A stretch of DNA of 64,000 bases from Ophelia neglecta (GCA_965285935.1 OZ260661.1:88226001-88290000), one strand, 5' to 3'. Shown: positions 3,438 to 63,340, numbered from the stretch's first letter. Notes: generated from the letters alone by a model not told the origin. A program made the numbers and translations.

Positions 3438-6400
3438 GTTCCTTGCCGATGATATGGTGATGACATTAGTTTGAGGGTGAGGGTGAGAAAAGTAGTCCCG
3501 TCTATGGAACTTCCTGCAGAACCACGTGAAGCCCTTGGAATATGTGCCACGTGGTTGGTTGGGCGGGGTTCGGTTTGGCGCACTGGGGAAGCTGGTTTTG
3601 CAGGATGCATATATATTTACGGATACCTTCCGCATTTCTAAAATAATTTAAATGCACTTTGCATAGTAATTCGGGCTTGATCCTCAGCCGCCAATGCATT
3701 TAGAAAGAATCATTTACGGGGCAGAAAATAATAATGACACCAATAAGGGCTCAGGATTAGGGGTCTTTAGGTTTATTTCATTAAATAATTCCACGAGAGC
3801 TAGAGAAATAGTAGAACACGCTTAGTTAGACTAATCATAAATACACAAGTCTAATTATATATAGGCGTATAGGTATATTTGGTGCCAACGGTACAATGTC
3901 GATAGACTGTACTTGTACTCTGTTGAGTTGTTCAAACTTATCTGTACTCAAAGCTTGGTCACGTCAGAATAAGTGTCTTAAAAGGTATGTTCTTTTCATT
4001 TATTCATTTTATGCATTGCACGCAACTAGGGCATATTGCAAAAGGGCATGTCTAAATAAGTAAAATAAGTTGATAAATAGTATATAGGCCTAAATTCAGT
4101 TCTATTGTCGTAGATTTTAGGCCTAGCCTAGACGAGAATGTACAATGAGGTCGCCCGGCGCGTCTCATTGTACAGCGAGAGCCGGCGTGCAGACAATAGG
4201 CCCATTGGAATGTCATAGTAATTCAGCCATTTGCCCATCAGCAAACTATAGGTATTTAAAGTCAGATTTGAATTAGTACGGGTCAACGAGTATGCAAACA
4301 ATTAAAAGGGCGTTCAATTATAAAGTCCGGGGGGTTGGTTATTGGATTCAATGCCGGGAGGTTTAGTTTAAACGTCGCGAAATATAAAGAATACGGAATA
4401 CATAATCGAATGCCATACATTGTTGAATTGAATGAAGCGCGCATACGCTCGTGGAAAGGGCGAATCGCGCGATAAGTGTACCGAAACGCGCATATCACAT
4501 GGGTGATTAAATCCAATTAGATAATCAGCATTTGGAAATATGATATATATGAAACATAATCGTGTGGAAATACATCTATGGGTATAGCGCAATTGAATGG
4601 AGACCGAACATGAAAACATGGCTTTGATAGTTATATAATTCATTCAGACTAACTATTAATGTCCGTCGACGAACTTGACCGATAATCATAAACCAGAATA
4701 TATTATGTAGGCAAGCGGACCGAAGATCAAACTGTTGCATTTGATTGTCACGTGATTTCGGTTACTGGCTGACAAATAATCCGCAGACATACGATATGCA
4801 GGCCTACATACAATGTCCATTGTTAGCACCAGTTACGATTTTTACATAACATGTCTGGAACTTGACTCGCCCATGTGCATGGTGTGGTCATAGCTGGCGG
4901 TAAGCCATAGGCCATTAGGCCAATCGTCTGCTCGACCCGTATAGGCCTAAATGTGTCAAGTTTGCTCTGACAAAAGTATAGCTCCTTCTCCAAGCGTTCA
5001 TTTAAATAAATAAAAAACCGACAATGAAGTAAAGTCGAAATTAAGCAAAATAATTGTTATAATGAAATATATATGGGTTAAAATTGAAAACAACCCGCTG
5101 CACAGAAGTTGAGATTTTAGAAGGGTCAGTTCAGTGAGCAGGTACAGTGATATATCACTCAATTTGCACCCGTTTGGGAGCAGTGGTGTAGACGAGATTA
5201 CTTAGTGTACATGAGTATATTTGTTCCAAAATCATTTATAGTTAACCAAAAGCCTAAAAGTGTTGGCCATTGTCAATGTATATGAAATATCACGAGCTAT
5301 GTTAAGCGTTAATCAAGAATGTTTGTAAAAATGTCACTTCATAATGTCACTTTATTATGAAACAATAGGCTATAATGCAATTGTAAATTGATTAACACAG
5401 CTTCTTGTCCAGTTTATTTATCATTGTTATTGCAGTATGGACCCTTGGGCTATTTTTAGGACATAAATTAAAGCAACAGAAATTGTACTGAATGACATCT
5501 ACATACAGATAACGTTTAAGGAACAATTAAGTCGTGAATCGCACGATAGCTTGTGTGCCCTTCCCGCGTTCATTAGACCAAACAGTGATGCATTCTTCAC
5601 CTCAATCAGAGGGCTTCACACTTTGTACCTTCAAGTGTTGGTATATTGTTACATTGTACCATTATCCCGTGTCTTCAATTGGCATGTAATAGTTTGGTCA
5701 GGTTTAATCAGTACATGATCTACTGTAACAATAAAGACGCATCCTTATCTTAATGGACGCGACCAGAATCCTTTTGTAGAAATACACAACAGTTCCCCCA
5801 CACGTATTGTAGTTTTTCTCTTTGCACAGGGATGTGCATGTCACCCCATGAACAATCAGCGTCTTCCCCCCCCCCCCTGCCCGACAACCTTCGTCTAAGC
5901 CGTATCTGACACCTGACATCCGCAGCAGCCCTCGGGCATCGTTGTCTACTTTATTAATACATTGCGAAATCTAGCTACAAAATTGTTGGGTTTATTGATG
6001 TCAGTTTTTAATGATTTATTTAATAAAATCACACTGAACCTAGGCCTATATACATGCCATATTAAATGCTAAAGACTAGGCTCACTGCCATAGCTGGACT
6101 TCATTCCCCATGGTTTAGTATAATACCCGGTGTAATAATTCCCCTTTTTGCCCTCAGTGAGGTAAGTAAACATGATTATATCTTAAGCCAGGGAAACTCA
6201 CTGTAAGGCACGAATGACGCTAGAATGAGGGTGACCCTCTACTTGAGTGTAAATTAATGAAAATGACAGAGGTTAAATAAATAAATAAAATACATGGTTA
6301 AATAAGTGGATAAATGAATAGAGTTATTGGATTGCTAGTAACCAATTCAGTTCGAAGGGTGAACTTATCTCAAAACAATGAAAAATGAAATGTAGAATAA

Positions 6401-12220: not shown

Positions 12221-12797
12221 TGTTACTTGAAATATTTCGAAGAAGTCTACATATAGGCCAATCACTGTGTTCAATTGTATGTTATATAACTTGGCCTCTC
12301 TTGGCTAGGCACTCCAGACAGTACTCATGGATTCGTACATATATAGTGTAGGCCTATGTCTGCTTGGTCAAGCACAATCTTGCTATACTGGCCCGCCGTT
12401 TCATATGCAACTTGCAGGTAGGTGAACGGATTACGTCTAGAATATCTGCTACAAACAATTAGAAGCCACTCCCAACTTATTATTTTGATATGGTGGCAAA
12501 CAGCGGCAGCAATTTGATGCTTACCCAAATTAGCCCTTGGAATAAAACCTGCCCTCCAGCGTTTTCCGATATATCCGACGCCTAACTGCTCGCATCGTAC
12601 GAAAAAGGAGTCTGACATGCCTATACTGACTATTGCTCGATGATCCCCTTTTAGAGTAACTGCTCTACCTGACCAGGAACTGAAAATTTATAAAAAGCTA
12701 AACTACAAATTCTATTATTTTTCGATTATATAATTTAGATAGAAATATCTTTTAAAACTGTGTATTTTAAGGCCAACTGACACTAAGACCAACGCCA

Positions 12798-13504: not shown

Positions 13505-15799
13505 TTGTGCATAAACAATGGTATGAAGTCACAACAATATTATAAGGCGCAGGAGCAACCAGAGAGTCATTGAAATCACTTCCATGGCAAGGCTACATGT
13601 TTGGAATGCTGTATTCTCTATATACCAGGGTAGGTAAGTTTTTTGAAATCAAAAGGGTGAGTGCATTAGCTGAGAGAAATGAACACTGCTGGTTAAAACT
13701 GATATTTTTATCCACACAGATAAAAAAAATCCGTATTTCAGAATATATGATACTGAAGGCTGATCATCTAATGATAGATGATCAGTATTCATCCAACGGT
13801 GTATGATCAATCATTGATGATACATGATATATGAGGATATATGAAATCGAATAGGAAAATAACCCCCAACTGCCGCATAAAGATTCTGTATCCCACCAAT
13901 GACTCGTGCTCAAAACCTCATTATTTATTGCTTAAACAACATAGAAATTAAAAACGGCATTCGAATAAATTCCTAAACCATTTTAGTATACCACAATCCG
14001 AATTATGTGCCCTTAGGGGGGAACTGTCATACTGACTTCTCTCTTCATGATCAATATCATTTTGTTTCTTTTAATGTCTTTAAAGAACTCTCTTATTACG
14101 CATTGTTTCATACCACTTCACATCTTTCCCGCACTGCAGTACTTAGGCTATGTTGACATAATAGAGTAACACAATAATTAACACTTATCAATAAATCCGA
14201 CATGTATTGGGTTATCGGTATTATATTGTGATATGATAATTATCATAAACTTGCATGCTTTTGGCGAAAACTATTTCAAGAGATTTTTTTTCTATTCCCG
14301 GGTAAATTGACTTCCTAAAACCAATTAAAAATATTGCCAATTACAACATAATATACATGTAACCCTTTCATCGTTCTCGTTCTTTTATGATTACGGCTAT
14401 AAGCTATTTTGTGACACATTCATACAAAGGATGTTTTTGGTATTCTGATTATTTTTTAAACAGAGCCAATCCATTGTCAAAGCGTTTAAGTTTAATTAGT
14501 ATCTAAGGATTGCAGTGAACATAGTAACATAGTCTGACAGTTTTCCAAACTTTCCGGTCTCTCCCAATTGGCAATATACTAAGTCTTGTTTTTTCTTCAT
14601 TGGTTCATAGTTGTAAAAGATGCATGGTAATATTAGTGATTTTGGTTAGGAAAGATGACATTTTGAACATTGTTCTTCTTTTGTCAGTTGCTTACTCACC
14701 AGAGTAGATAGGCCTATGCCCCTACCAAATTCTACTGCAACATAATGGATGAGTGCTGAGCCTTTATGATATAATTATGCGAATCAAGGGTAAAATCGTA
14801 CTAGTCTCCTAGCAACCTCACACATTTCCATTATTGAACAATGATAGATAATATATTCTTACCTCACCACATTTGAACCTGTTGTGGCGTGGGGGGGGGG
14901 GGGGGTATTTCCCCAAAACACATGTGTACTAATTTATCAAAATACATTCGTATATAATGGTACAAATTAATGTTATTTAACGTTTAATTTATGTTTTTTT
15001 TTCACAAGTTTGAGTAATTCTGGGTCATATGCAGACTCAGCGCACCGGAATGTGCAATCTCGAATCGGAAAGAAAAGTAAACTTGCAGGTTGATGATTTG
15101 GCATCTAGCCAAAATATGCATGGACTTCCATGCGTTGAAACGAACGCGAGGAAAATTTTTCTCATTTTGTGAGTAAATAGGAAAGGAACACGTCCAATGC
15201 TATGACGCACAATGACTCTAAAAATAGGATAGACCATCTTCGTTTGTCAGACGAGTTGCTCAGTCTTATTTCTCAGCACACTACACCGACGCTATTCAAG
15301 ATGAAGCAGACATTCACAGTAATCTCCTATTAAACTGCACTGTTTTTATGTGAATGTCTGTCAGATACACAGATACATCTGAGTGCGTGTCTTTTATGCT
15401 TATAGTTTCTATATTGAAAGAGCTCCCAGTTGAAAACCCCACGCATAAGAAAATTTAACCCTAATTTATATAGTGTTACAGACACAGAACTTGTATACCT
15501 AACACACCCAAGAAAATGAAAACCCTTATTCATTTTATCTTCCAAAAACTGAACGAATATGGAATTAATACTTATTGATTAACTAGGACAACATGTTTCA
15601 GTGCAAATAATGACAATTTTAGGCGATCGGGTTACTTAAATTTCACACTTAGGGTCGAAATTCGAACAAGTAACTGGCCAATCCAAGGGCTGCCAACGTT
15701 CGTACTTGACACCATTCGATGCCAAACGACACTTTAAACACGTTTAATGCATTAATGCAAAATTAAGACTATTGGGTTACCCAAACTTCGTTTCTTAAG

Positions 15800-18638: not shown

Positions 18639-19309
18639 TGACAGCAGATTTTTTCTGGCCATCTGATTGCCCTTTAAGGGTTTAGACCAAGGTCATGACC
18701 TACAATATGGCAAAATTCGACATTGATTTCATGAAAAAGGGTTTTTTTCTCAGCAAATATCCACAGGTAGACATTGATTGAATTCATTTTATTAACATTG
18801 ATAAAACAGGAGTTAACTTGTCTTTATTTGGAATGTTATAAGAAAAGAAAAACTAATCAAGTAATCAGGGCTGACCGGTCTTATTTTTCAGATAGTTACC
18901 TTGAATCTAGCAAAACCCGAAAGACCGGCAATATTGAGCAATTATTAAAGTAATTGTGCGCTTTTATTCTTAAACATATACTTTTATCTAAAATCAATTA
19001 CAATCTAACATGGTATTATTATTGACTCCTACACTAACGTTTAATATTATAACTCATATTTTGGTTCCGAATTGATCCAATTCTGTAAATTTTCGTGACT
19101 TTATTTTTATGGAGCTGGCCGTGTTATAGATTGCATGATGGCTCCATATGTTCCAAATCCAAGGAGCCATGGTCTTTTAATCATTAGGCCTACACAGCCA
19201 GAGGCCTCACGAGGCCTATAGTCATGTTGATCTACATGTCCTTACGGGCACAGCTCGGTCAGCGGATCCTAGTTACTGAATGAGTCGGAGTGAAACACAT
19301 GGCGTGAGT

Positions 19310-19890: not shown

Positions 19891-22800
19891 CGAGTCTTTC
19901 TAAATTACTACGCGTAGTATACAATTATGAGGAAAAAGCTGTTTTCGCTAAACTTCTGACGCTAGCTCTATAGGCCTATAGTGAAATAATAAAAGTGTCA
20001 TTCTTGATTGGTATGTGTTTTTCTTCATATCGTCTGTACATAGTACACAGTAAATGGCCTTTCAATGAAAATAGGATCGAAATATGCTCTAATCTTCTTC
20101 GTTTAGGCAATTCCTTTGTCAACAGGACTAGTAAAGATTAAATTAAGCTAGGGTCGAATGTCAAGTTTATTAGGAAAACTAAATAGTATGCGGCAATGAT
20201 GCTACAGAAAATAAATAAAATTAATCACATTATTGACATAAGAAAATAGAATAGGGCAGGTTTCACCGTCACGGTTTTATAAAGCTAAGGGCATAAAGGC
20301 CGAATGTTAGAGCACTTACCATAAAGGCTGGGTGGTTTCTGTTTATTTTGTAAATGTTTTTTCATTTGCAGAATAGCGTCACGTATGGTGTCTGAGTATT
20401 ATCACTGTGATATTACACGCTCAACCTCACTGAGTTAATGTCATCAGGTCATGTCCATTTAATATAATTGATCGTACGTGACTAGGACGCACGGCTATTC
20501 AAATTTTTACTTCGGTACACAGAGAAACTATGTAGAAACAAACGCTTCAAATCAATAAAATAAGTGCAAGAGGACAGTCAAATATTCAAATCACGTACGT
20601 CATCACAAAAACACATGCACAGTAAACGCCCATCCCAGACAATATAATATTGATTTGAATTAATATATTCTCGGCTCCACCTGTTCACGTGCAGCTGCTG
20701 TTACCATTCATCACAAAATCGACCAGAAAAGAATTTGTATTGGCCATTTCTCTCACTCCCACGCTATTTACCTAAGGATGTTAATCGGGGAACATGTGTT
20801 CTCGATTACAAAAAAACTGTCTGTGTAGTGTTCTATTGAAATGTGTTATTTTTAGATTAATCAGTTTCTCCGCGCTTTGATAATACCATGGAACATTGAT
20901 AATATAGAAACAAGGAAACAATTGACTTCCGATCTTGTTTGTATTTCGGAGAGAATAAACTAGATTAATGAATTTTGCTTGTTATGCCCATTAGAGTAAG
21001 AATAGGCAATGTTTAGAGTCACAATCAGGACGAGTCGGGTCGGAGAGTGCGTCAGCCCTCGCTTGGTTTCTCATTCATGCATGCCTTACAAGTGTGCACT
21101 GAAGAAGCAGAACATAATGTAAGTGTTATGGTTGGCCTATCACGTAATCTGGTTATCTCCAAAAAGAAACCTACCCATACTAGCATCCTAGCAAGCCAAT
21201 CAAGTTCTAGATGCATGATGGTATTCAAAATTATATAAGTACATATTCGTTTGAATATACAGAGAGCAAACTTCAGTGAAGACAAATTACATTAATTTTT
21301 TGACTAAGCACTTTTATTTTGCCCTTTCCCACTATCTAACAAACTTTATTCTCTCTCCAAATGTAGACGACAAACATTTCTTTTACAACTACCCCCCCCC
21401 CCCCCCGATATATCTATTCATTAGGAGCGTGCGAACTGATAAAAGTCGTCGTTTCTGCATCAGGCAAGACGGGATTGTATTAGTTTCTAATCAAATCAAT
21501 CAACTAGAACTGAACCTTAATGAACAAATTCATTCGGACAATTATTTTCAGCCCATACTCTCGTATATGTGGCATCAAAATCAGTCTTCACAAGTTGTAT
21601 GAGGCGGACATAGCATATGCCTATGTTGGAAAAGTATATGATTCAGCTAACATTTTGGTGTCTGGAAAAGTCAGTATACTACCTTAGAAACGAGAAAATA
21701 TACTGCGATAAATGTTATGTATACAGGGTAGCTCTTTATTGATACTAGCACTGCAAATCAACGAGGACAACTACACTAGAGGATGAAACCCTCCGCTATG
21801 TTGTTTTACCTCACAAAATATGCATCCAGATAGTCACAATAACGACCTGACTATGGGGCGTGTTCGTTGTTAGAACCGACCGGTTAAGGGGAGAAGTTAT
21901 ATTTGTTCTCAGCAGATGGCAAACAGACATAGCAGACTATGTCGACTATTCTGTTTGTTTTAATTGTGAAGATCTGCCCCGACAGGGTTGACCATACGCC
22001 GGGAGCGGCAGTCGGTTTACTCTCAGCGTTCGCTTGTCAAAGAAGACGTGCCGAACACAAAACAGAGAAAATGAAAACCAATGAGTCCAGTTCGGTTTAG
22101 TATAGACGAGATCGTGTGTAAATAGACTGACTGTGTTCTCACTGCCCTAATATCAACAGTTTTGGCCGCTGGCACCAGACCTCACTTGACCGGAATATGC
22201 GGACTAGGCCTGGTACATATATACTCCATAGTTCACCTTTTTACACCCGGGAAGAAGCTGTCCACCGGCATGCACTCAGCTTTACCTTTATATATAGCAT
22301 TGTGTATATGACACTCACTTTTTGAATGAAAGCAAAACGAGGCGCGATAAAAAGTCAAGCTTCAATTTGAAATCGTCCACCCAGATAATTAAAACACTGT
22401 ACATCATGTCTTGGTGAATACGTCGATATTTTTTTTTGTTATTTTGAAAATATTCCTCTGTTAGTCCTACCCCTATACATTTTGCTTCATAGAAGAAATC
22501 TTTCGATATCTTGGATCGATCCATCACCAGATACAAGTATCATCGATGTGGACGATATGGTTTTGTTTACTCGACCTTGAAGAAGGGGTCAAGTTCACTC
22601 TGTATTTCATACATAAACTTCTGCACCTTAAGAAAAATAAATGTAAGAATTTTGACGGACTAACTGAATTCATGTTAATAGGATGACATCCAACCGGTAG
22701 ATGACACATTTATAAACATAACTGTTTTTTTCTGACACTGGTCGATCTAAGGTGTGAATTAAAATGCTCCCGTCCGACGCTAACTTGCCTATTTCCATCT

Positions 22801-24649
22801 GGTTCCTGCGCATTAACGAGTTAATCCTGAATATATTTATTGAAAAATAGTTCTTCTAAAAATAATCAACGAAATAAATGTTCCCTGAGGCAGATTATCA
22901 TGGGATCATCTGTATTTGATGTGCGTGATTTCGGTCGCAGCAGATATTCTAGTTTATTTTCTCAGCAATAATATTGTGCGTCATATCCATGATGTTGAGA
23001 TCAGTAGCCCGTGCTTAAAAGAAAGCACGTGCCGTGTTAGTCTGGTTGATGATAACGTATCAGAGCTTTATTGGGCCAAATAATTAATGACTAGCCGGCT
23101 CAGTTATGAATTTCAGTGAACCTGGCGTTATCGCTCAGATAAGAGCATCGGAATTCACTGGCATGCCTCAGAAACTATGTCAGGAATCCTCGGATACACC
23201 AGATTCGATGTGGACCTGTACAGCCCATAAATCGTGTGCAGGATTAATATGAAATACGGCGCCCCCATGCCACAAAGTGATCATATCGAGCAGACGTTCA
23301 TCAACGGTTATTATCGATTATATATTTTTGTGAAAAATCTTTGACTCACTGAACAGATGCTGACATTTGCACATCCATTTAAATTACTACCAGAATGACA
23401 AGTTATGTACACCTCACGGCTTACACAGATATACATGTATGAGATGCTTGTTTATTCATTTCTAAAGTTCCTTTTTTTTAATTGGTTAATACAATGGTTG
23501 AGGGCGTGTCCGTTGCTGGTCCACTATGTAGAGACTGGACTTAGACTGCACTAGTATATATTCTGTATCAAATTTACATCATTAAATGTCCAGTGGACAG
23601 ACCTAAATGCACTGAGATATTGACCGTATGATCATATACTCGCAGAAGTGACACCCATGACATATAGAGAACAGATAGTAATTAACACTTAAATGTGAAC
23701 ACAAGAGATAAATGTACGCTACAGGGAACAATTTAAACTTGCTGTGCCTATTGGCATAATGTACTGAGGTCGTATGAACTCAGTGGAGTAAGGTCACACA
23801 TTCCAGACGGCGGCATCGGTGTAAAACGTGTATACCACCGAGGTTTCACTCTACCACCCTGGAATGTCGGAGCTGCGAAAAAACTTCATTATATACAGCA
23901 AAAAACATGCCTCGTTAAAACATTCAACTGATGTTTGTTCTTAAAAAATGTAGTGAGTAAAGTGTTTCAGCTCCAGTATTTTCAGGTCACATATAGGTTA
24001 ACTTATCAGTAGGAACATTGTTGATGACCCGCCCTCATTCAACAGACACAGACAGCTATAGCATAATATGTCGGGTTTGATAGGGCTTAAAAAGTCACTT
24101 AGTCCCAGAGGAAAAGTTTGATCATGTCATCTTGTTTGGCATTGCATGAACTCGTGGTGTGTGCAATGTTTGTATATACATGTACATTCAAAGAGCGCAG
24201 TTCACTAGATGCTATAGCTCATCATCTATATCATGTTGTGGCAACATCTCTGACATAAAAGTTCACAAAATATACTATAGCTCTAAATGTATCACTGCCA
24301 CAATTCACTCATCCATGTAGGCACTACACATATTAAATAGAAGTTTGTGAATGGTACCACTTTAATTAATGAATATTGTTTTTTTTTTTTTTATAAATGT
24401 GAAGTATCGCCATTTTTGTCATTGACATTGCTTAATGACATGCCATCTTGACATAACTATCTTGACTTGTTAAAGGGTTAAAGATAAAAAGGGACGGAGA
24501 TAAAAAAAACGACAGTCATTCCCGACCATGAAAATATATCTTAAGCCGCGCGGTAGAATGAGCAGGACATGGCATTGTTTAATTTCACTTCTCCCTGGCA
24601 ACTCATACATATATCTGATATAGATATATGTATCTATAGGCCTACCTAT

Positions 24650-29056: not shown

Positions 29057-29182
29057 TCACAGGTAGGCCTACTTGTATCAGGATGGTAGCTAAAAAAACG
29101 CTTAGAAACTCTCGACTTATTTTTTAGTATAGATGTTTTTAGCAGTATTTCTCCTCAAACATCCTGATACAAATACCTGTGA
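29057..29182. mobile_element. Short MITE/inverted repeat whose left arm carries an extra GGCCTA
   Basis: Left arm TCACAGGTA[GGCCTA]CTTGTATCAGGATG (29057-29085); reverse complement of right arm TCACAGGTATTTGTATCAGGATG (29160-29182). Confidence 0.75.
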
Positions 29183-30619
29183 CAAATATAGGGGAAAGCA
29201 CGTCAAGACCAAGTTTATGGACTGACACAAGACCTGTATTATTGCATACTTTCTATATGCTTCCTTTAAAGCAAAACTGTTCGTTAGTGTTCCTTAATAA
29301 TAATAATGACAACCCTTTATAATGTCCTTAATAGGGGGAAGGCCAAGATATAGTTTCCCCTCTGCCTGTAGCAAGGTCACAAGTATATAAACACTGAGTA
29401 CTATGATAACAGTGCGAGACCAGGAAGGTTTGCTGGCAATTCTAAAAGGGATTTCCCCGAAAAAAGCATAGCTTGAAGTCTCTTGTCACGTGAACTAGCA
29501 ATTAGTTGAGTAGTGGCGGGTTGGTCACACTAAAAAGTAGAATCCTGTTTTCGCTTTCTCAACGCCGGAGTGAAATACGTAGAATTTGGTTTATTCATAA
29601 TTGCCTGATTTCCGATTCTATTTATGCTTGTCAAAATTTCCTTGTTTTCCATTATTGTCAGGTCTATAAGCCTCATGCCACATCCTTGTGCTGGGGCACG
29701 CCGTTAAAACGGTTAAAAATTCAATGAAGGTTTCAAAACATATTCAAATATAATTATACATCAAGTATAAATAAATGGCATATCCCTTATAATATTGTTG
29801 GCCTATATGGTTATATGCGGGGATACCAAATAATAGTAGGTGCAAAATAGCCAACTTTATGTAAATTTAGGCCAATAGGCCTACATAAAAGCCAGGAGAG
29901 ACGGTTCTCATAATCCTTGCTCTTTTCCTTTCATCATAAACATTCACTATAGGTTCAGGGATGTAGCCTTTTAATGTTTTCTACGTGCATGTTACAGGTT
30001 TTACCCGTCACAGAAAAGGGCAGGATTTCATTTTTTAATGATCCCTCTTATAAGTGTTAACTGTATATATACAGATTAACTGTATGTCAACTATCAAACT
30101 ATCTATCTATCTATCAAACTACACGTGCACTGTATAGTAAATAAACAACATTATGCTGTTATCTTCGCGCGCAAAGCTCATGAGCCGTATATGATAAATA
30201 TATTATTAAAACTACAGTACATTTCTTTTACTATCACAGTGCTGGAACGGATAAGCGTACCGTATGTTACGGTAATCAAACATTGCGCATGTCAAAGCGC
30301 TGTCGCAGGTAATGCCTGATGTTAAGTCTGTTAAAGATGGCACAGTCCAAGATCCTCGTGCTCCGTAGCAATAAATACAGAACAAAATATGCAGCCGTTC
30401 GTTAACTCGTATTAGCGAATTAAATGGATAAATGTTGCTCATAAGTTGGCTTGATAAGCGTAATGGTTTTTGCCCAAATGGACAAAATAAGCATAAAGGC
30501 ACCAGAATGCATCTTATATGACTTTACAGCATAGATCAACTGGGCTTTATCTTTTCCGTCAATTTATAGTTATTAATATCTAGTAGTACGTCCTCTGTAG
30601 ACCAAGCATATACTCAGAC

Positions 30620-34400: not shown

Positions 34401-37267
34401 TTATGCCTAGATTCGGTATTTATCTGCAAGGAATCGTAAACAAAGGTGCCAGGTCTTGGCATGGTGATATGGTATGTAGCCAGGAAAACCGATCAGTGGA
34501 TTAAACTGGTGCCAGGAAAAAGTCAAGACGGCTTGGCCATAGTCGTGATATAACGACCGGTTGGCGTGCCGTAACCCAGCTAATTAAAGTATTTTTCACC
34601 ACAGATCTAGGCCCTTGATAATCCTAAATATATTCCACCCGAATGAGAAGGAACAAGCGGCTTCCGGAATCAACATCCGGTTCTCAAGGTGATTAATATT
34701 AATAGCTTGCCAACCAAATATTTTAACCGGGTATTGACACGAATTGGTTTGATGTTAATAGGCTTGAATAGTCTTAATTGATGCAAAGATTCCCGGACCC
34801 TAAATTGAAAATTACCAATGAAGAGGCCCCGAGGACATAATAATCAGAATGTCAGGAAATAGGGCGATAAAGACAATACCCATTTAGCCTATTTAGGCTG
34901 GTGCAGGTTCTACTCATCTTTTGAAAGAAAAAGAAACACAGATATCTGCCAAGATTTAATGCGCATATAAAGTAGTGAAAATAAAAAACTGCCAAAATGT
35001 GGTGCCGCAGAATTTTCTATAGAAAATAAGTACTCCAAGATTGAGATACAGGCTTATAGTATTTACCTCTATTAAGGAATACACTAAGTAGCTTTCTAGG
35101 CCTAGACACGTCAAGTCCCATGTTAGACTCGTTTGGCTAACTGAACTGAAGCCTGGTTATGATGCATGCACCAACAGCGAACCTCTTGTACCTTATAGGA
35201 ACATGTAATTAGAACAATGAGGGGAGCACGTGAAAAGTTGTGCTGGGTAGGGAATTTTTGTTATTATAGATAATCGTTTAATGTAGAAAGATGGAAAATT
35301 AGGCGGTTTTCGATTTTACCTCAAAGTGGCACATTTTAAGGGTTAAATGTTAGCGGATTTGTTGAAAGGGTGTACCTAGGCCTGATGACTTATTCATAAA
35401 ACTTATTAATATCTTTTCAAAATGGCACAGGAAATGTTGGCGGTTTCAGGTTAACTATGTGCACCGAATCAGCCAACTTTTCCTGTCGGCCAACATTCAG
35501 GAAATTTCTGGCTGGCTAAAGAAGCGTTCCTTAGCTATATGGCACACGTATGCTACACAAAACTAAATCTGGCCCGGTCTGCTAGAAAGACTAACCCAAG
35601 TTTTTTCTTTGCTGACAAATGTATCTTTGTTTCCTGAGTCAAACTTAGACAATATTTTCTAGCTTCAAACCCCCCTATGAATGTTTTATCATTACCTCAG
35701 AGTCACGGAATATTAGGCATCATACAGACATAGATATCTAACTATAGGCCCGCCCTTTAACATCGACATATAGGTGTACTTGGCCTTAATGTTTGAAAAT
35801 AATTGACTTGGGGGGGGGGGGGGGGTAGTACACTATGCACTGATAGGTAAGAAGACCGTTAAGTGTATGATTATAGCTAAGGCACGATGACAGTTAAATT
35901 AATTATCTTTTAACAAGCAACCCATCAGTCTTTCATGTAGTTTATCCATAGAAATGCAGGAAAGCGGTTGACTTCTTATATATTACTTCTTAATACAGGG
36001 AACACCGATTGGGACTGTGGCCTCTAAGTTCGGACGCTATTTTTGTGCAGTCTTCTAGTGTGTCACAAGTACACTAGACAACTTTCTATTTGCTACTTTC
36101 CATGATAAATCTATTTTGAGACATCTATTTTAGTCTCTGGCCTAGTGATCTGAACTATGAATCTAGTCATAAACACTAATAACTGTCTTCCTTGTCACCT
36201 GGCAACACACTTATATACATTAACATGCAATTTATTATGGTATTTGCCTTTATAAACGGTTCGCCCGGTACACCCAAACCGTCTCGATCCACGTTTTATA
36301 CGAGTTCGCTGCGAAAGGCCTACAAAGGTTTAAACCATGCCGTGAATTTTGCGTTCTGGGGTGGGGTGGGGGTGCTAGAGTGAGAGGGAGGAGGCAGGAA
36401 GGAATACGAGAGAACTAAGGTGGTGAGCAGGAGAGGGGTTAGTGGCGGTTGGGCAGGAGTGGAGGAAGGCTGGGTCCATGGGGGGTATATATAAATGAGT
36501 AGACTGGCGATAGGACAGTAAATGTTGTGCTAGGTAGAGTCGTTTTATGTTTTTTTTAGCACGAATCAAACATGCATCTACTTTCGTCTTGGTGACTTTA
36601 TTACATGTACATGTTTTTTCAACCAGGAGAGTTGGAGAATCGGGTCATATGTCATTCATTTTAAACTTAAACTGTACGTGTTGCCGCAATTTATATTTTC
36701 ATATTGCGACCGTGTGATTTATATATTTTTCTCATACACTACTTAATTGAAATGGAATAAAGTAAAATGTCAACTTTAATGAATTATCGTTTCATGGTTT
36801 AACACCTTTTTATTTTGCTTTCGCCCCAAGTTAGTCGCTAATGAAAAATTCTATTCTCAAAAACACTTCCAACTTAAAGCGATGCTGCCCAATTCACCTT
36901 GATATTCACGGGTCACTGCTAGTATCTCTTATAATACTGAATTATAGCCAAATGATAACAGCTGATATTATACAATAAGAAAACAGATCCTGTAATAATT
37001 CACAATAGCTAATACTATCAAATAACGATCTCATCACCAGTCAGTCAGCCTCCTGCTAATAGTTTACAATATAAATATATGAAGGAAATATCGCAATATT
37101 ATTCATATCCGGCTGTTGAGAGTTTTCTCCCTGAATTCCTCCTCGTTCTCCTCGGCATTTTAAGATCTTCAGAACACAGCCTGACAAAATTTTCCACAGA
37201 CGTAGCTAACTTGATCTCTCATAGCATGGCTTGTTCAGAATATGTCGGTAGTCTTGGCCATATCATA

Positions 37268-37795: not shown

Positions 37796-37939
37796 TCTCG
37801 GTAATAGCCAGAGCCATTATTTTCCCCACTCAAATTTCCCTTATTTCGGTTAACAAAAAAAAGCCTTGATGATGTCCTATCAATGTTTATTAGGCCTATT
37901 TTCATTAAATATGATTGTCAACGTTTTATTTGGGTTGGC

Positions 37940-38020: not shown

Positions 38021-39759
38021 CCGAAAAACCATGAACATTTCACAGTGTGTGGCTGATTTTAAACAGCCAATGCCTAATAAGAATGATATCAGAGCTAATT
38101 GTCCTGGGTTTTGTCCGTGCAGAGTCAACTAATAAATTATATAATAAAGACGTCCCGATCTAGGCCATACACACAGTGAACCAGACATGTATATCACAGA
38201 TATTTTGTCAGCCAGACACCATCAATCAGAAAACTCACAGTTTATCTGTTGAGGCAAGACTTTGTGAAGGCCCTGCATCCCTGGATGGAAATCAAATACG
38301 GCAAAAACCGTAATAAAATCGTACAGATGGGGTTTGTTTTAAGACCCCCCTGCACACCTTCTTCATCGGTCTTGGTGGCCCACTCACCATAAGCACAGGG
38401 ATGTCCCACAGTTTATACCATTGCATGCTGTTGCCTCTCGACTGAAAAAAGCTGCAAAGGGCAGTGGCAGCTGCAGGCAGACCCTCTTCATAAAAGCCTC
38501 AGTCTGTCACCCAGTCAGCCTCATAGAAATAATCAGACCAGCTGTCCTGGTCCCTGGAAACAAGGCAATTGCATGGGGTAATAAGAATCTGTACTTTGGG
38601 CTGTCAGCATTATATTAGACTACTGCCAAAAACTGACCATTACAAGTTATTGCCTTCTACACAATCTAGAATTTACGTCTAGTTTAGTTGGTTAATCGCT
38701 TATCTTGTCCTAGATTACAGACTTCTCCGTGCCATGTTCACACTTCATCTTGACATTGTCTGACTATACCGTCCCTCTTGCCATTACAGTAGCCTTTCTC
38801 GACATATCCCCTTCGGATAGTCATTTAGAGTTTTCCAACGCCTGCCAACCTCTCTTCCCTTCCCGTCCCAGTTTGTCTACTTTTCTCTTGGCAATATGCC
38901 TCCTGTAGGAGCATTTAACCTATATTCTCTATATTTCAGTGTGAGTTAACTATTCTTTTCATATTATCTGATTATGCAGACCTCGCCTATTATTCTACTC
39001 TGTCGATTTCTCTTGTTTTTTTGCCACATAATCAGTCAGTGCCAATCGTGACTATTAGCAAATAGTCACGATATGCATTGACAGATTGTAAATGGCGTGT
39101 ATTCTTTTCTTTGACCCCCGATCACTGACTTCTTTGCTTCATTTTAATTTTTCCCTGGCCTGTTCTTCGCGTAGCCCGTGTTCTCTGTCCACTTCACTTG
39201 CCCTTTCCATACACAGGTGACCTAAACGACACTGGAATAAAAAACGGGAATTATGCCGATACAAACAGCTTACAAATATGGTTATCGCCATACCCAGTAC
39301 AAGATAAACAACACGATAACCGAAGGTGAATTATATAAAAGGCCTACAAAACTCAGTTTAAATTCCACTTATTATGAGGTGATAGCGGCTATCATCATAT
39401 CAAAATAACACAGTTTAATGCCACGTCCTCGAATGATCGTGATAAACACTGCGTTATATAGTTGTCATAAAACACCAAAAATACCGAGGCTATATGGTTA
39501 ATAATTCCGACCATTTTCTGTTATTATAAGCCAAAGCTATGAGTTCGGGATATTAATAGCGATATTATAATTCTGTAAAGTTAGACTTGCGCTGTACATA
39601 ATGTATCTGTTGTGTGTAAACTATTCTTGTTTCTCAATCTTAGTGTACCGACTTCTGTTCGGCCCAAATCTGATTTTTTTTGCCATAATCGACTAGTCCT
39701 CTCTGCTCACCTTGGTCCCGAGTGTCTACAATATACATACTTATTTATATATAGGCCTA

Positions 39760-53710: not shown

Positions 53711-54942
53711 TGCTGCTAGGCATTTAAGGGCGGCGACCTCCATTTTGAGCGTATGACTTTACTTGACTCGACATTTCATGAGCAGTAACCCTTCAGTTAA
53801 ATTTCTTTTTCATTCGAAGTATATTGATGCGTTGATAAAAGTGTAGCAGGGCTTTATAAAAGTCATATATGATTCTGTACAAGAGTAAATGTTTTTTTTT
53901 TAATCTTAAGATAATTGGGTCTATTGCATTCATCGTTTTAAGGCTTTCACTCAATTTAATTCTAGGAGCGTTTCTCTCTTAATTGGTTTAATCAATTTAT
54001 AAATCGCATGACATACAATATGTTGTCACAAGAAATAGTCCAATGTTCATTGCCTGGTTCTCTTCTCGGTTTTTTTTACAGAAGGAAACTAAAAACAATG
54101 GCTTAAGGTATTATATAAAAATCGCTCAAGATAATGAGTCTATATAAGCTAAGTGCATGCAAGCCCTCCGAGAAAATGCGCACATCCCAAACAATAGGCC
54201 TCGTCTCTCTCTCTCTCTCTCTCTGTGTCTCGAGGGATGACATTGTTGTTGTTTATGTATCGCGACCGATAATTCGCTAATAGCTTATGTTAGATAAATA
54301 TGTAAACATGTACCCAATGACAGGTACCAATTAACACCGTATATGTCCTGGAGAAATATGTCAATAGTTTGTACGCTTAGTGCATCGACAATCCTTACGC
54401 TATAATATTCTAAGATGATAGTTTTTGTACACCCAAAAAAGTGTATAAATTCTTGACAACACACTTTGGATATTTAGGCAGTGTTCGGAAATTGCGCAGT
54501 TGGCAAATCACCAAACTGTACTACTTTGAGAGCAGCAACAATTCCCGAGAACTGCCAAAATATCCATAAATGGCACATATTCTTACACCCTATTACACGC
54601 ATATTACCAAATATAATCTATAATCAAATTAATACATCAGCCCATATGGCCGCTTTAAATTTTAATGTACACGACTTGTCAATATGAGCAAGGTCACACG
54701 GCTAGCGTGATGTCGTATTCGTCAACTTTCTCGTACACGACCTTGTTTACTATTTTTTCATGGAATTAATGTTGAGTCGACGAATATCGCACATCGTTTA
54801 ATTCCGCGCAGACTGTCGGATAACTCCGCTCAGGCGGGAGGCTTATTTCGCGCAAAATGTCGAGTAAGCAGTTTTTCATCTGGTTTTGTTTTTCGCAGTA
54901 AGGAGCCTTATTCGGCTAGCAAGCTAGGCCTACGTGGAATAA

Positions 54943-55483
54943 GGCTACTTGTTCGCGATATAAGGGTAATAAGAGATCAGTTCCGTTATGTTCGCTAGGT
55001 GGCGCCTTATGTATCACACCGACCCACCATTTCTGGAAGGGTTAAAATTCAAAATGGCGGAACGGAGAAAGCGGACAGCGAATGTTATAAGTAAACATGC
55101 TGATATATCGAAGTGGACAGTGACCGATTGCCGGAAATGTATGAAGGAACGGGATTATAACAATTTAGAATTGCGAAAGGCAGAACTTTTGAACCTAATA
55201 GCCGAGGTGATTGCGCCTAAATGCGCCAGTGTTCCAGGCAGATGACCACCTGCGTCTTATAACTGAACTAGATACATGTGATGATGGCCGTAGATTGCTG
55301 AGTTTTCGAAGACGATCACCACGATCACCGCCACAAACCTCAATATTCATACATCCTAGTTCAGTAAAATTGTATGACCTTAAAAATTATAGTACACGGC
55401 GATTATAGGCTTACACTTCCATAACACATCATGTGGTGCTTCATACAGCTGATTTTATTAACCCTACTTTCTCGCAGATAGCG
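54943..55483. mobile_element. Putative internally deleted DNA transposon enclosing the SAP ORF
   Basis: Left GGCTACTTGTTCGCGATATAAGGGTAATAAGAGATCAG vs reverse complement of right end CGCTATCTGCGAGAAAGTAGGGTTAATAAAATCAG: degenerate inverted similarity. TSD not readable. Confidence 0.35.
55054..55390 (+). pseudogene. Frameshifted SAP-domain ORF, probably the N-terminus of a transposon accessory (YqaJ-type nuclease) gene
   Basis: ATG at 55054 gives MAERRKRT...DISKWTVTDCRKCMKERDYNNLELRKAELLNLI, which fits the SAP pattern (LxxLTVxELKxxLKxRGLxxxGxKAELIxRL). It appears to continue in the overlapping frame (RLNAPVFQADDH...VKLYDLKNY). Assignment to ISL2EU/IS4EU or KolobokP is inference. Confidence 0.55.
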
Positions 55484-58400
55484 GTAATCGTGCGCGATTA
55501 AGACTCGACTTGGTGGCGGTGCCTAGCAGCGGCTACTGTGTTACCTAGTAGTTAAATTATCTCCGGGGTCCCCTATTAAACGATGCGTGAATGTTTCCGA
55601 CATCAGACTACATTTATTTTGAAGTCAGTTATTGGTGACGTGTGGATAGGCCAGATCAATAACAATAAGTCGGACATGAACATTCGATGTTTACGGTGCC
55701 TTCCATCCAACGAATGAAATTACAAAAACTAAAATGCATCGAGTCGGATTGCCCATTGATGTCATGATTGTGGTCAGCCGGTGCAGATTAAAATGCCTTG
55801 ACTCTTGGCCGTAAAGATCTAATCGATATTGAGAGAGCTTGTTGATGAGCCAAGATGGTTCGTGATTAACGTAATTGATCAATAGATCAGTATTGATTCT
55901 TGGGCCTAGTTTGGCCTGTTTTCTGGACAGGCAATTGCGAAAACAGTGATGATGTTTAGCCTCTGTAGCCTTTTTTGGCAAAGGTATGAATGACGGAACA
56001 TTTATATTATAGAAATGAAATATTTCTATAAATTCAAACTATAGTTATATAACGATTATATCAATCGAAAAATGAGAAAGCTTTAATACAGGATTTTTAA
56101 ATGTACTAAAATCTGACGTGGAGGCCTTTATCGAACGAACCAAAAAGATGGACAACTGACAGTTCTTGGAATTGACGCCGCCGGGTGAACCCACGGATGT
56201 AATCGTCTTCCTGACCTTTTGTTTGACCTTTGATCTACACTAATGGAAGACGAGGCCTTCAACTTAAATCAAAAACATAGAGCTAAGCTCTCTCTGAAGA
56301 ATGAAAGCGAGTAAACAAGTAAACTGATGCCCTTCACAGCAGGGTGGCTTATTATTGGCGGCCTATGGGGCGTTTACTTGTCTCAGATAGCATATATTCT
56401 TATTTTCTTAGCGAAAGTAAATGCCAAGGTTTCATTACTCGTTATGAGCTCATTATCTTAATGGTCTCTAAGAGCGCCGGGCGATCCATTCTACTCAATT
56501 ATCGCCACCAGTGGTCTCGTATAGCGCCATAATATGAATCGTCTCCATTATCAGAATCGTGTTCAATAGAATTAACGAAGTGACCAAAAACAGTGAAAAT
56601 TGTGAGTTGAGACCACCAATGTATGTGACTGGATCCTGGTCTGACTTGGAGATGGTTTGGTTATCATTTGCATTGAAAGTGTACAGTTTGTTCTATATGA
56701 GGGGTCTGATTTGACGGGTGGTCTGATTATCATGATGGCCTTCAAGGCTGGTTTTGCTGTAGGTCTATTACCGATGGAGCTGTCATAGCCACGAGACAAT
56801 AGGTCATACTAATATGCTACAAGACTGTTGAGATGGAACCACTCATTTAGCCTATTAATAAACGCGCTCCGAGTGAAGTTACGGGCGCACGAAAGTATGC
56901 TTAACGGACTAAGTGCGGACTTATAATGAACATCCTCAGGCATAATATGGGCTTATATATGCCTTGTGATTTCTAAACCTCTAGCTCTTGTAAATGGACC
57001 AGAATGGAGCGTAAACTAAATGAAACTTCTTTAACTATTTTATAATTTTAAGTATTGTGTAATAATTATCGCTTAAAGAAAGAGTAACATAAGGGACTAT
57101 TGTAATTGTTGATGTGACAAACATTGCCCCTTTAAAGGGTCTAAAGATTAATTGGTAGTCTGTGGTCTTTTGGTGGTATCGAAGTGGCGGACATCTCATA
57201 TTTATTCCCGTCGGCCACATTATCAAACTAAATAACTCTACCATTCGCCTTCCATTAGGACGAGATAATAATAGCTCACCGGATCAAAATCACTGTCCAT
57301 TCTTTTTCCAGCCTGTTAAGATTAGGCATATGAGATGAGCCAGGTGAGCCTTTTGATGTTAACATAGAATTACAATATAAAGCCCCGTGAACAAAAAATT
57401 ACGGTAAAATACTGCGTGTTTGAGTGAAATTAACCAGCACCTATACCATGCTCCCATCCCATAAGCTGTCTGTGTGTTGTTTAACGAAAGAACTCGACAA
57501 AAAAGAAAGGACAGCCGGGATTCTACTGTCAGTTTCTTTAAATTAGATTTGATAGTGTATATTGATCATTTTGATATTGTGATCATGAAATACTAATTAT
57601 TGACGTTTTACATGTTTGTTTGAATTGCTCAGTGGAATGATTCGCAGCAGATGGCCGATTAGTCCATCATCTGGGTTTGTCTCAAGTCGTTGAATTGTTA
57701 GTTGTCTGAAAAATAGTACATACGTATCGACAAACTGTGAATCGAAAATCAATTTTAAAACAACCAATAATGAACAGACAATAAATATGGTAATCACCAA
57801 TGACAAGGATCTGTTGTGATCAAGGTCACTGACATGGGAACTCAATATGTCTCTAGGCCTATAGATGAAAAATTGCATTTCTGGGAAAATTGTGCGCGTT
57901 GGCCATAAAACCTATAAATAATGACGTGGAATAACTTCATGACTTCATTCAAATCTGCACATCATGTTCTTTCGCCGTATCAAGTTTCAATGAAATCTAT
58001 GCATCATAAAAACCTATCTGCTAAAGGAAAAAAAGTTAAGATAGGCCTGAAATTCTTTTACGTTGAGCGATAATATGTCATAAAGATCGATAATCTAATA
58101 TTCAGCTGACTAAATTATTATTTCATTTGGCGTTGGTAACACTTCCTCTCAGTCTCTCAGTTACCTCGCTGTTATAATGCCATCGCGCTTGTTGTCCAAA
58201 TTCGGCCAAGAGAACTTGTATACGTAGTGTTCAGCATCTCAAATTGTACCTGTAGAAAAATATTGCCACGTCTACAATCTTATTGTTTGAAAAAAGAAGA
58301 CCCTATGCTGAGCTAGAGCCATTGGAATTGAATCCGTCGCCGTTGACGGCGCGGGAGGCGGACCTGCTAGGCGAATATATGTCTTCACCGATTTCTTCAC

Positions 58401-59069: not shown

Positions 59070-61370
59070 ATACTAAAGAAAAGGAAAATAGCACACGTGT
59101 AGTTTGTGATTGGTGAAACGCATGCGTTCTTATGGCATGTATAGTTGTCTAATAAGAAATAGTCCGTCTCAATTTTCTGAAAAGGATTACATGTCTCAGA
59201 GAACCCCGAAACAATTATCCTAACTAGTAGGGGTATTTGGTTTAGAAACCGTATTTGGTACAATTTAATTTTCAATAATGCTTGAGAGCCGTTGGGCTCA
59301 CCACCACAACCCATATATACTTCATACCATTTGGAAAAAAAATCTTCCGATTGGAAATTAGAATTTGGTTTCAGTAGTGTACAGGAATAAATAAAACGTG
59401 AACTTAAATGATATAAAGTAAAACATCGAATCAGTTAAGTGTAATCGTAATTTGTAAGCCATTTACCTTAGCTAGGACAAGGTTCATGTATTTATTTTAT
59501 GATTTGACTACACTTCTGTGGATATTTCGGACGGCTTCAGGAAATAAAAAGTTTTATCCAAACCATGTTATAATGAAAAAGATATAGTTTAATGAAAGAA
59601 TAGTATAGTGTTTTGACATTGTCCCTATAAAAGATTGTCTTTGCCTTATATAATATACCAAGGCCTCGGGAAACCTTGCCCCTGGAAATGTTGTTGTAGG
59701 TAACTGTTTAATAATTTTACCTTTAATGACTAGGTCATTTGTTGCTAGGTTTATCTTCTTGGAGGAAGAAAAAGAACATAAACGGTTTTTAAATATTCAA
59801 CTTCCAGCTAAAGTGAAATATTGACTATTTCTCCGGTCATAATTGTAATCAGGTCGTTTATATCCTTTCCAGATAAAAATGAATTTGAATTATCTGCAAA
59901 CAGAATAGTATAAAGATGTTCAGAAACATTTACTAAATCATTGACATACAATAAGAATAGAAGTGGGCTAAGGAAGAACCCTTGGGGAATTCCATATTTA
60001 AAGAATTGACGACAATATTTATAGTCAAAGTCAGTATACTATTCCCTTTTCTAAAGATGATGTTTTACATAATTAAAAGTTTCCCCCTGATTCCTTAATG
60101 ATGTAATTTTATAAGAAGAATGTGTCAAAGGCCTTTAAATAATCAAAAAATAGGCCTAAGACACATTCACCACGGTCTTGTGCAGGGAAAATTTATCGAT
60201 GAACACAATAAGAGCCAAATTTGTTTAATGATTGTTCCTGAAACCATATTGGTTTGGATAGAGAATATTATTTTTCTGTATAAGAGAAATGAGTCGATTA
60301 TACATAAATCTCTCAAATAATTTCCAAAATTGGTAAAACAGAGAGAGGATTATAATTTGTAAAGAGTATTACCACTCTTAAATATTGGCACATGCTGGCA
60401 ATTTTCAGCTCACGAGGAAAAATCCCTCGGGCGAACGATAAGTTTAAAATATGCACAAGTGAGTCAATATACAAATTTCCTGAGAGTTAAAACATTAAAC
60501 ATCAATTGAAGCCCAACCAACTCTGCTGTTGTTTCCCAAACCTTGAATAATATTAAGTAATTCCTGTGTAATTGGTCTCCGATTTTTTGCTTATCACATG
60601 TAGGTTGACCAGTATCCTAAAAGATGCTACAGGAGGAACGTGGCATAGTTTTATTAATGACATTCCTAATTATTTGCCATAATTTTCTTAAATTGTTTCT
60701 ATTAAGTTCAATAAGGTTCTGAAAATGAAGCTTTTCTGCATGGTCTAAGGGAGAATTCAATTTCTTTTTGTACACCTTGTAACGTTGTTTGTGTTCCGAA
60801 ATTTTGTTACTTTTTGAAACCGCCTGTTTGTACGGCCGGGCTCTAGACGTTTTTTTAGAAACTCAGTTAGCCAGGGTTTAGGAATGTTATTATTGGATTC
60901 AAGGGTCTCCTCCGGAACACATTTGTGATAAAACTGTGTCAATGCTAGCTGTGCATCATTAATTTCTAGCAAAGAGGTCAAACTTAAAACCCGAAGCCAT
61001 AATATCCAAGAACTAACTGGTTGGTCGATGGGAATCTGTATTCAAATAGTTTATATTATAGTAGATCCCAAATAAATTACATCTTTTTCTTTCAGTTACT
61101 ATTTTGAATGCAATGTCTGTATTTTGGGTGTGGCCATTAAGTCATTAAATAATCATACATCGGTATCTTGTGGCCGATATATAGCCCCTTACATTACTAC
61201 ATTACAAGTTTTTGCTATTAATATGCTTGCGACTCACTTCAATATATAAGCTTTCAATACTTTTGTCACTCATGTTCAAATCCTGTCTCTCAGTTTATTT
61301 AACACTGTCCTTGATAAACAACTTATACCCTTGTAAACTTGGGCAAAATATATAACGTTACACATATAAT
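59070..61370 (-). mobile_element. Decayed CR1-type non-LTR retrotransposon ORF2 (endonuclease + reverse transcriptase)
   Basis: Minus-strand translation gives GISVFIKDSVK*TERQDLNMSDKSIESLYIEVS (~61330-61230, APE endonuclease), GAIYRP (~61185), VLGLFFDYLKAFDT (~60160-60120) and YGIPQGFFLSPLLFLLYVNDLVNVSEHLYTILFADNS (~59997-59885, RT core, FADD decayed to FADN). Many stops and frameshifts; ends approximate. Confidence 0.9.
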
Positions 61371-63340
61371 ATTGTGTCAATTTGGGCATTCGGAGTAGGG
61401 TTAATTTGCAAGAGCGTAGTAGGGAGATGGAGGCCACGGCGGTAGCTGATTGGGGGACAAGAGCCGGAATGATGATTAAGTCAATGCCACTTCTACCTGT
61501 CCCGGCCTCTCTAACTCCTTTTCTTATACATTTTTAACCAGATTTTGTCTTTCCTCCTATACGGGCTTAGGAAAATTGTCCTTATTTTTCATTGTCCTAC
61601 CGTGTAAATAGCGGGAAAATAGCCCCATTCATGTATGAAAGTAGGTCACCATATATGTTAACCGGCACCTAAAAACCCACCGATGTGGAAAAAAAACACC
61701 CATATATTCTAACCACGGTCTTAAAAGACTCCGTTTATTTTACATTTGAAGTTAAGTAATTTACAGATGAATACTCCCAATGAATATGTTGTAGTGATAA
61801 CTACCGAAGGGTACTGACTTCGCTTAGTCAATTCGAAATTTTATATAGGCCTATAGCTAAAGGTAAAAATAAGTCCAAAAAGTAGCTAAATATACATTGA
61901 GTAAGATATCAGTCTGATTTAAACGTGTTGTTTTTCGCAGAAAGTAGTCCTGGCATGTGATTTATTGCCCCAGTCATGTGCTGAACATAGCTGCAGCCTA
62001 GGCAAGGCCAGCTGAGGTGTTAACTTACAAATTAATGACAGTTACTTTTCATCGGACATGTAGGTGAGAGGCCCAAAGTGCAGATTTTACCGAAGCTTAA
62101 CTCACAAACATCGGGATCCGTGCCAATACAGTAAAGAACCTTTTAGAATGTAATTGGTGCTCATACTAAGGGTCCATGGACTATAATATACACGAAGAGA
62201 TTTTTTTAATAAAAAACCCTTCCTTCCAAAGTAATTGCTGATTCGAGACTGTTTTATACAAACCAATCATGGGAAAAAAAGAAATGTGTATTTAAATAAC
62301 GCATGGGTAAAAGATGAAATGACTGACCATTACTTGCAAAATAAAACTTAATGAAGGACATCGCATAATAACTTGCAAATAAATAAATTATACAGAGATA
62401 TTCATTCATCATTGATATTCCGTTCCTTGCATACTGCACATTCCAATTACATTAACAGGTAAGAAGACAAACCTGTGATTTTGTCATCTCCCAGCCTGTC
62501 GGATGTTATTATGCGCATGACTTGTATTAACCCTCTGGTCCATCGTGATAAGCATTGCGGGGGTAGGGGTGTTGATATTGAAAAAAGAGAGATATGTATT
62601 TGTAAGCATCTTTTCCGCTGTGGGCTTATTGTAGGCGGAGACAAATCCGTCAATGTCCATCAGTGTTTACACTACAGGTTGCAATTTTTTGCTTTGATCG
62701 CCCTGATATATACTTGACGTGTGTATGGCAAAAATTGTCGTTTGAAGCTCAAGATAATAAGCAGTACCGGAAGTCAGATTTTATGGGCAGAAAAACGTCG
62801 TTTTCGGAAAATGCTGCCAAATTGTAACTAAAATAGCTAGCGACTGCCGGTTAGCGTCCAAATGTTCGTCAGGCCAGGGCCAGAGCTCGTCATCTACCGG
62901 CACGTCCGGGAGTCCAAATTTGCCGCCATGACGTCACGAGCATTGGTTTTTATTTCAAGAAACGGAAATAGAATTCTGACATAAGTTGAGGCAAGTTTCC
63001 GACTTTCGGTTAGTGGGCGCCGTCTACAGAGCGTCAGAAAGAAACAAAAGAAAAACCAGTAGCGTAACTTCCTCTAGTCACCAATTCGCAATTAAGCATC
63101 GCACACAAAATTTACCGGCAGCAATTTGTTGGCCATCGACAAAATAGGGTTCGCAGTTATGTTTGAAAAATAATTCGTCCGTTTTGCTTTTCTTAGCGTA
63201 TAAACAGCCCAAATCTCGTTCAAGTCCCTTAATTGCTTAAATCTCCGGAACCGGAAGTTACAACGACATCCGGTCTTCAAACGGACTGTGTCTCTCTACA
63301 TTAATGAAGGTTGCAGTGGCGTAATAGGACTTTCCCCATG

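Follow-up and report, generated by a model that had tools for sequence, protein, structure and literature searches.

Copies of TAGGCCTA in the window

The window analysed here, a 64-kb stretch of the genome of Ophelia neglecta (G000:C1:88226001-88290000), contains exactly 24 copies of the palindromic octamer TAGGCCTA, a real excess that is best explained by transposon scars of the Tc1/mariner kind with a probable pogo parent. A preliminary description of this DNA had counted at least 24 copies by hand and had put the chance expectation at about one. All coordinates were confirmed and no extra copies were found; 100 dinucleotide shuffles of the window gave a mean of 0.66 copies and a maximum of 3, and Markov models of order 1-3 predicted 0.8-1.7. 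Among the 8-mers of the window, the enrichment of TAGGCCTA ranked top after G and C runs, and its density was four times the genome mean (24 vs 5.8). The TATA context ascribed to many copies was present in part, as TATAGGCCTA at 10 of the 24 sites and as TAGGCCTATA at 6. The shorter words TAGGCTA and TAGCCTA had both been called frequent, which was borne out for TAGGCTA (11 vs ~3.5 expected, p = 0.001, with three of the 11 copies in the tandem array at 53615-53702) and not for TAGCCTA (4 vs 3-4 expected).

At 61846..61853 the word was heterozygous, the other haplotype carrying a bare TA. Probable scars lie at 4085..4092, for which no paralog occurred among the sampled loci, at 4942..4949, 6041..6048, 12349..12356, 14709..14716, 19185..19192, 29064..29071, 29876..29883, 35097..35104, 37891..37898, 45470..45477 and 46105..46112, and at 57854..57861, which none of the contigs listed bridges. 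The copies at 19971..19978 and 34306..34313 stand in a TATA..TATA context, and that at 4118..4125 is followed directly by GCCTA, forming a stacked TAGGCCTAGCCTA. At 44151..44158 the word was apparently present in both haplotypes (bridging contigs with 0 gaps; alternative single-nucleotide polymorphisms at 44045 and 44174), and at 53061..53068 probably so (three bridging contigs, 0-1 gap letters).

Several copies adjoin other repeats. That at 24637..24644 abuts a fragment (24645-24709) of a CAGT-ended miniature inverted-repeat transposable element (MITE), and the final TA of that at 39752..39759 forms the duplicated target of a MITE with CAGT ends (39758-39938); we infer that the scar came first and served as MITE target later. 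These are members of a very high-copy family of ~185 bp (TA-CAGT...ACTG-TA), also found at 44655-44965 and 56580-56767. The copy at 54925..54932 lies just left of an old AT-bordered ISL2EU-type MITE (54960-55577), a non-autonomous element of ~620 bp with 73-84% identity to dozens of copies. The tandem array at 53615-53702 consists of TAGGCTTA, TAGGCCTA (53625), TAGGCTA and TACCTA units, scar-like words that have been amplified locally. The copy at 60151..60158, on the minus strand, sits inside a decayed reverse-transcriptase frame (LGLF) of a long interspersed nuclear element (LINE), where it reads CVLGLFFDYLKAFDT, which we take to be a motif of that frame. Both haplotypes carry this site. It is probably native LINE sequence rather than a scar, in agreement with the earlier remark on it.

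Indels, word spectrum and genomic distribution

Genome-wide (762 Mb), TAGGCCTA occurred 69,501 times and the reversed word used as control 3,592 times, which upheld the enrichment beyond the window; the control word contains a CpG and therefore undercounts the chance level. Extrapolation of an order-2 expectation from 464 kb gave an estimate of ~10,000 chance copies and hence an excess of ~60,000. Tandem arrays with a period of 36-40 bp, many units of which contain TAGGCCTA, inflate the genome count (G000:C1:557,000-664,000 and 4,605,000). The word TATAGGCCTATA occurred 3,520 times vs 42. The distribution of TAGGCCTA was patchy, with 53 copies in 264 kb around the window and 13, 3, 2 and 0 in four other 50-kb blocks. 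Periodic spacing was not supported, the spacing being compatible with random placement.

Wherever an empty site was available for comparison, it had a bare TA, six letters shorter than TAGGCCTA. At 61846, contigs from three of three runs lacked exactly six letters and had a bare TA there. These runs, and with them all haplotype data, are from a single individual, in which the TAGGCCTA state was read at 4 of the 24 window sites; 44151, 53061 and 60151 were bridged without a six-letter gap. Thus, one of three informative non-LINE sites was an indel, orthologous comparison being limited to the second haplotype. As a separate observation, the lengths of contigs and gaps within 45588-47031 suggest that the other haplotype has 6 bp inserted there.

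Paralogous copies were compared in 1.84 Mb of sampled sequence, where 153 of 309 TAGGCCTA sites had a spanning paralog. The word was identical in 130 rows, largely redundant copies of young elements; seven rows (six events) had a clean six-base gap, 2 had substitutions and 14 differed otherwise. One of these 14 was clean on hand inspection, which brought the independent pairs of TA vs TAGGCCTA to seven. Two clean-gap events separate copies that are 97% identical. Among eleven non-palindromic TA-nnnn-TA words taken as control, 44 of 131 spanning sites showed some difference and none a six-base gap; the palindromic control TAGCGCTA gave a six-base gap at one of five. Paralogs with six-base gaps were also found for TAGATCTA, TACCGGTA, TACTAGTA, TAACGTTA and TACATGTA. 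Local empty-site tests over 264 kb and 969 kb yielded no informative pair; such pairs arose with more divergent repeats. The expectation that TAGGCCTA would behave as a TA/TAGGCCTA indel is therefore supported by both the second haplotype and the paralog pairs.

Where direction could be tested, in many-copy repeats, the change is an insertion. In an old MITE, one of 29 copies (L163) has TAGGCCTA and the consensus is without it. At one site of the high-copy MITE, 13 six-base-longer matches include TAGGCCTA, TAAGCCTA and TACATGTA once each, and about 3 of 18 total matches at this site are attributable to chance, judged by the control.

The spectrum of TA-nnnn-TA words was determined in 464 kb of blocks not selected for transposons, with tandem repeats masked. 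Named by the first two filler letters, the most enriched of the 16 palindromic words were GG, i.e. TAGGCCTA (12.1x), CA, i.e. TACATGTA (5.6x, the second most enriched), GA (4.7x), CC (4.0x) and AC (3.3x); TA (2.3x), TT (2.1x) and CT (1.9x) were lower. The 120 non-palindromic words had a median of 1.07, and the top two were transition neighbours of TAGGCCTA; enriched neighbours of this kind include TAGACCTA and TAAGCCTA. GG, CA, GA and CC, four of the five most enriched palindromic words, match the ends of resident families that duplicate TA. In the same blocks the TAGGCTA/TAGCCTA pair was enriched 1.5x vs 12x for TAGGCCTA. The three-base products of GGG ends were not enriched (TAGGGCCCTA 0, TAGGGTA 0.95x). 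A three-base-overhang model for these ends was accordingly rejected, and retention of two bases from each end is indicated. A small excess was seen for TAGGGCCTA (8 vs 2.9).

CpG observed/expected was bimodal across 90 bins of 5 kb, and the value for the window was 0.78. TAGGCCTA occurred 52 times in 204 kb of CpG-rich bins vs 13 times in 183 kb of CpG-poor bins, and TACATGTA 24 vs 52 times; circular-shift tests of this partition gave 0.025 and 0 of 80 shifts. With class-specific expectations the contrast between CpG-rich and CpG-poor bins was kept for TAGGCCTA (17.9x vs 6.3x) and became smaller for TACATGTA (4.0x vs 6.7x). Most of the signal is supplied by the C1 block, and a CpG-rich block on C2 had no TAGGCCTA in 50 kb. 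Low CpG in invertebrates reflects methylation, and CpG serves as a proxy for it here. The CpG-rich domains in which TAGGCCTA scars are concentrated, the window among them, are probably unmethylated.

GG-ended pogo elements in the genome

A search with DDE_3 led to a family with the ends TA-GGGTGA...TCACCC-TA, represented by four copies of 94-99.7% identity with unrelated flanks; more of this family turned up in later searches. When the catalytic exon of this family was used as query, the further families TA-GGGGAATG and TA-GGGGAGAG were recovered. There are at least four GG-ended pogo families, and all those found end in GGG. Single-TA empty paralogs of L300 and L217 confirmed the TA duplication. 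Thus, a TA-duplicating class with GG ends, as postulated in the preliminary description, is present; the single family and the GGC...GCC ends that it had envisaged are not supported, and no TA-GGC family turned up in the terminus and transposase surveys. One strict GG terminus pattern was counted at 338 places vs 4 for the control, among them non-autonomous elements of 410 and 600 bp. The terminus finders, run over 0.55-1.07 Mb, gave no TA-GG family, and the parents surfaced only via transposase searches. No second end was found for the GG terminus common to L331-L334.

The encoded proteins carry a DDE_1 domain, with HTH_psq above the cut-off in L272, L300 and L303 and a weak HTH_Tnp_Tc5. The last two aspartates are 35 residues apart (DD35D) in L272, L300, L303 and L277, and L303 has an uninterrupted frame of 671 residues. 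Judged from sequence, the candidate parents combine the features of the pogo superfamily, a DDE_1 catalytic domain, terminal inverted repeats (TIRs) and TA duplication. Their domains, aspartate spacing and TIR layout suggest a Fot-like placement (PMC7386202, PMC7325037). In an in-genome tree built without reference transposases, the GG rows clustered with GA rows and a single CA row, in no resolved order. Related resident families end in TA-GAG, TA-CCG, TA-CTG, TA-CAG, TA-GTC and TA-TCG.

The Fot-like pogo elements described by Gao et al. 2020 (PMC7386202) likewise have DDE_1 with HTH_psq, DD35D, TA duplication and short TIRs, and several animal Fot-like TIRs listed there share the GGGG tract found here at TIR positions 10-13. 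DD35D is not specific to Fot-like elements, as Passer has it too. The 13 animal Fot-like rows retrieved by label from supplement 3 of that paper start with CCGT, CAGT or CAAA, unlike the GG of the present families; the only rows retrieved with a GG start came from one amoeba and two oomycetes. Also unlike the Fot-like elements compared, some of those in this genome are 4.5-6.2 kb long and two encode additional domains.

These two have a deubiquitinase-like domain downstream of the transposase (L272:3089-4327, L300:4679-5860), followed by a PHD-like finger below the cut-off. The domain resembles a deubiquitinase of viral-tegument type that zebrafish Helitrons encode (PDB 8ADD, E 9e-8; Atlas Herpes_teg_N 0.96). 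Such domains have been described in Helitrons, in passages that leave DDE elements unmentioned (PMC9741609). A GA-ended pogo element has a second open reading frame with a HIRAN domain (L287:5037-5435). In many multi-copy DDE_3 elements of 2-6 kb (L201-L236), the profile is matched by short open frames alone, which suggests intron-containing Tc1-like transposases.

CpG-poor flanks were found at 5 of 34 GG element loci, or 5 of 29 without shared-flank copies, against a background of 63 of 162 (p = 0.034). The CA-MITE had such flanks at 13 of 29 loci and an AT-duplicating MITE at 4 of 29. Because the latter is equally biased, the CpG preference is not specific to GG elements.

Origin of the word

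The indels and the GG-ended class lend support to the earlier proposal of transposon footprints, though not to its ISL2EU/IS4EU candidates. ISL2EU elements (PHIS superfamily) are present and active in this genome. In 15 HTH_Tnp_4 family groups, comprising 40 loci, the ends that could be resolved mostly bordered AT and none was TA-GGC. The end of group H, ATAGGGG, is ambiguous, and group M contributed no resolved end. ISL2EU targets A-AT-T and duplicates AT, and its TIRs often start with GG (Han et al. 2015, PMC4482050). Families of this type were rejected as parent on their ends here, and duplication of AT cannot give a symmetric TA-GGCC-TA insertion. An AT-duplication reading of the word itself (AT-AGGC-CT-AT) was rejected, as the base before TAGGCCTA is A in only 47%. 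A reading without duplication (T-AGG+CCT-A) formally fits the indel; no such family was seen. In one young HTH_Tnp_4 element of >9 kb, a stretch of 1.6 kb (L136:7123-8738) has TAGGCCTA five times, without difference among three copies.

We consider it likely that TAGGCCTA is the excision scar of the resident GG-ended pogo (Fot-like, DD35D) transposons. The filler GG+CC equals the terminal bases of the TA-GGG...CCC-TA families, and the link of these families to the scars is circumstantial. In Tc1/mariner excision, the transposase cleaves the non-transferred strand a few bases in from the tip of the element; after end joining, 2-4 of the first or last element bases stay behind between two TAs (PMC6943129, PMC2874221). 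By this chemistry, pogo insertion would duplicate TA; excision would cut the non-transferred strand two bases inside each end, so that GG remains per flank; and end joining would fill both overhangs to give TA-GG-CC-TA, i.e. TAGGCCTA. A one-base overlap on joining would produce the minor TAGGCTA/TAGCCTA. The six-base indel, the young GGG...CCC elements with duplicated TA and the word-to-end match were observed; cut position and repair route are deduced from the known Tc1/mariner chemistry. Several GG families may have fed the single motif over a long period, since some sites are common to both haplotypes, one is heterozygous and the decay neighbours are enriched; the enrichment of TAGACCTA and TAAGCCTA is what decay of TAGGCCTA by transitions would yield.

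A number of observations speak against this origin. The window and its 200-kb flank yielded no GG terminus; the few loci that could be compared included no pair of an occupied copy and a copy scarred with TAGGCCTA; and no scar was found when two known GG insertion sites were searched. Footprints of 4 bp are at the rarer end of the published 0-4 bp range (PMC9976928, PMC7913693). The haplotype indel and five paralog pairs may be deletions between two TAs, and at a second site of the high-copy MITE the four six-base-longer matches included two TACATGTA and no TAGGCCTA. TAACGTTA is enriched (3.3x) without any AC-ended family having come to light, and families with GT and TC ends exist whose matching words are not enriched (1.2x and 0.7x). 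For ~60,000 excess scars, 338 termini of the one strict pattern were counted (~200:1); in the CA class, a scar count of similar size goes with a MITE present in thousands of copies. The ratio therefore demands either a long history of high turnover or a source missing from the count.

Such a source could be a different family with TA duplication and GG or GGC ends that has become rare, died out or escaped the survey, and next to which the GGG pogo elements would contribute little. This is improbable in our judgment. It would account for the scar-to-element ratio, GGC ends with a 3-base overhang would presumably give TAGGCCTA via GC microhomology, and the survey covered ~1.9 Mb with two transposase families and one protein query. 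However, neither the terminus finders nor the transposase-led family surveys gave a TA-GGC terminus, the rule of two bases kept at each end also fits the CA, GA and CC words and their families, and recent scars (between 97%-identical copies, and at the heterozygous site) need an active source, a role for which the GGG families are young enough. The scar excess, and TAACGTTA without a family, would also follow if host repair or replication, or a transposase that does not complete insertion and excision, wrote GGCC between duplicated TAs. The constant, flank-independent filler excludes slippage and flank-templated hairpin repair, and the fillers track resident transposon ends, which leaves this explanation very little weight.

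It is equally hard to credit that selection maintains TAGGCCTA, however it arose, as a protein-binding site in open or unmethylated chromatin. Dimeric factors typically have palindromic sites, an argument made for TACATGTA in Phytophthora (PMC3520976), and the enrichment in CpG-rich bins and the up to five copies per 1.6 kb within one young element would suit such a site. Against it, TAGGCCTA arises as whole 6-bp indels in neutral repeats and is heterozygous as an indel at 61846, its transition-decay neighbours are the top non-palindromic words, and its spacing is compatible with random.

An origin of TAGGCCTA by pogo excision would resemble the Tc1/mariner footprints, in which a duplicated TA encloses the first and last 2-4 element bases after end joining (PMC6943129, PMC2874221). 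The named Tc1 footprint is TACATGTA (PMC3520976), known from C. elegans, and Sleeping Beauty leaves TACAGTA/TACTGTA. Unlike these, the filler here is GG+CC and the four-base filled form dominates over the three-base form; and whereas known footprints were seen in assays, those described here are fixed or segregating at genomic sites numbering in the tens of thousands. The open-access papers searched do not contain TAGGCCTA as a word by itself; 283 have it within longer strings, and the 40 of these that were listed look unrelated by title. The chemistry is known; open-access text yielded no precedent for the scale, for a pogo parent with GG ends or for the domain partition, and no mass-footprint report of this kind (Repbase and Dfam being outside this scope; passages of PMC3520976, PMC7913693, PMC9976928, PMC12730594 and PMC10045372 were among the text covered).

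Repeat libraries probably contain Fot1-like animal repeats with GG ends. As a tentative and rather doubtful synthesis, the palindromic TA-nnnn-TA spectrum might be a readable, family-coded record of transposition, in which GG-ended Fot-like elements, a clade of low copy number and high turnover with some members encoding a deubiquitinase-like domain and a PHD finger, would target unmethylated chromatin and have written ~60,000 intact scars, and CA-ended elements would scar methylated domains. If so, excision of transposons would rank among the main causes of 6-bp indels, and past target preference would be readable from the most frequent "regulatory" palindromes of many invertebrate genomes. 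On the excision reading itself, apart from this synthesis, the top palindrome, which motif finders would take for a binding site, would here be a mutational scar. As a scar would keep two bases of its parent element, word counts could date and map past transposition by family even where few elements survive, could show past insertion relative to methylated domains, and would make excision measurable as a source of small indels in natural populations.

The window contains further features outside the TAGGCCTA sites. A 184-bp heterozygous deletion with TT in its place was seen at 62212-62397 in three of three runs. Tandemly repeated sequence comprises a G-rich, strand-biased minisatellite (19323-19880), a CpG-rich array with 35/64-bp units (37268-37793) and a repeat of 118-141 bp (42063-42818).

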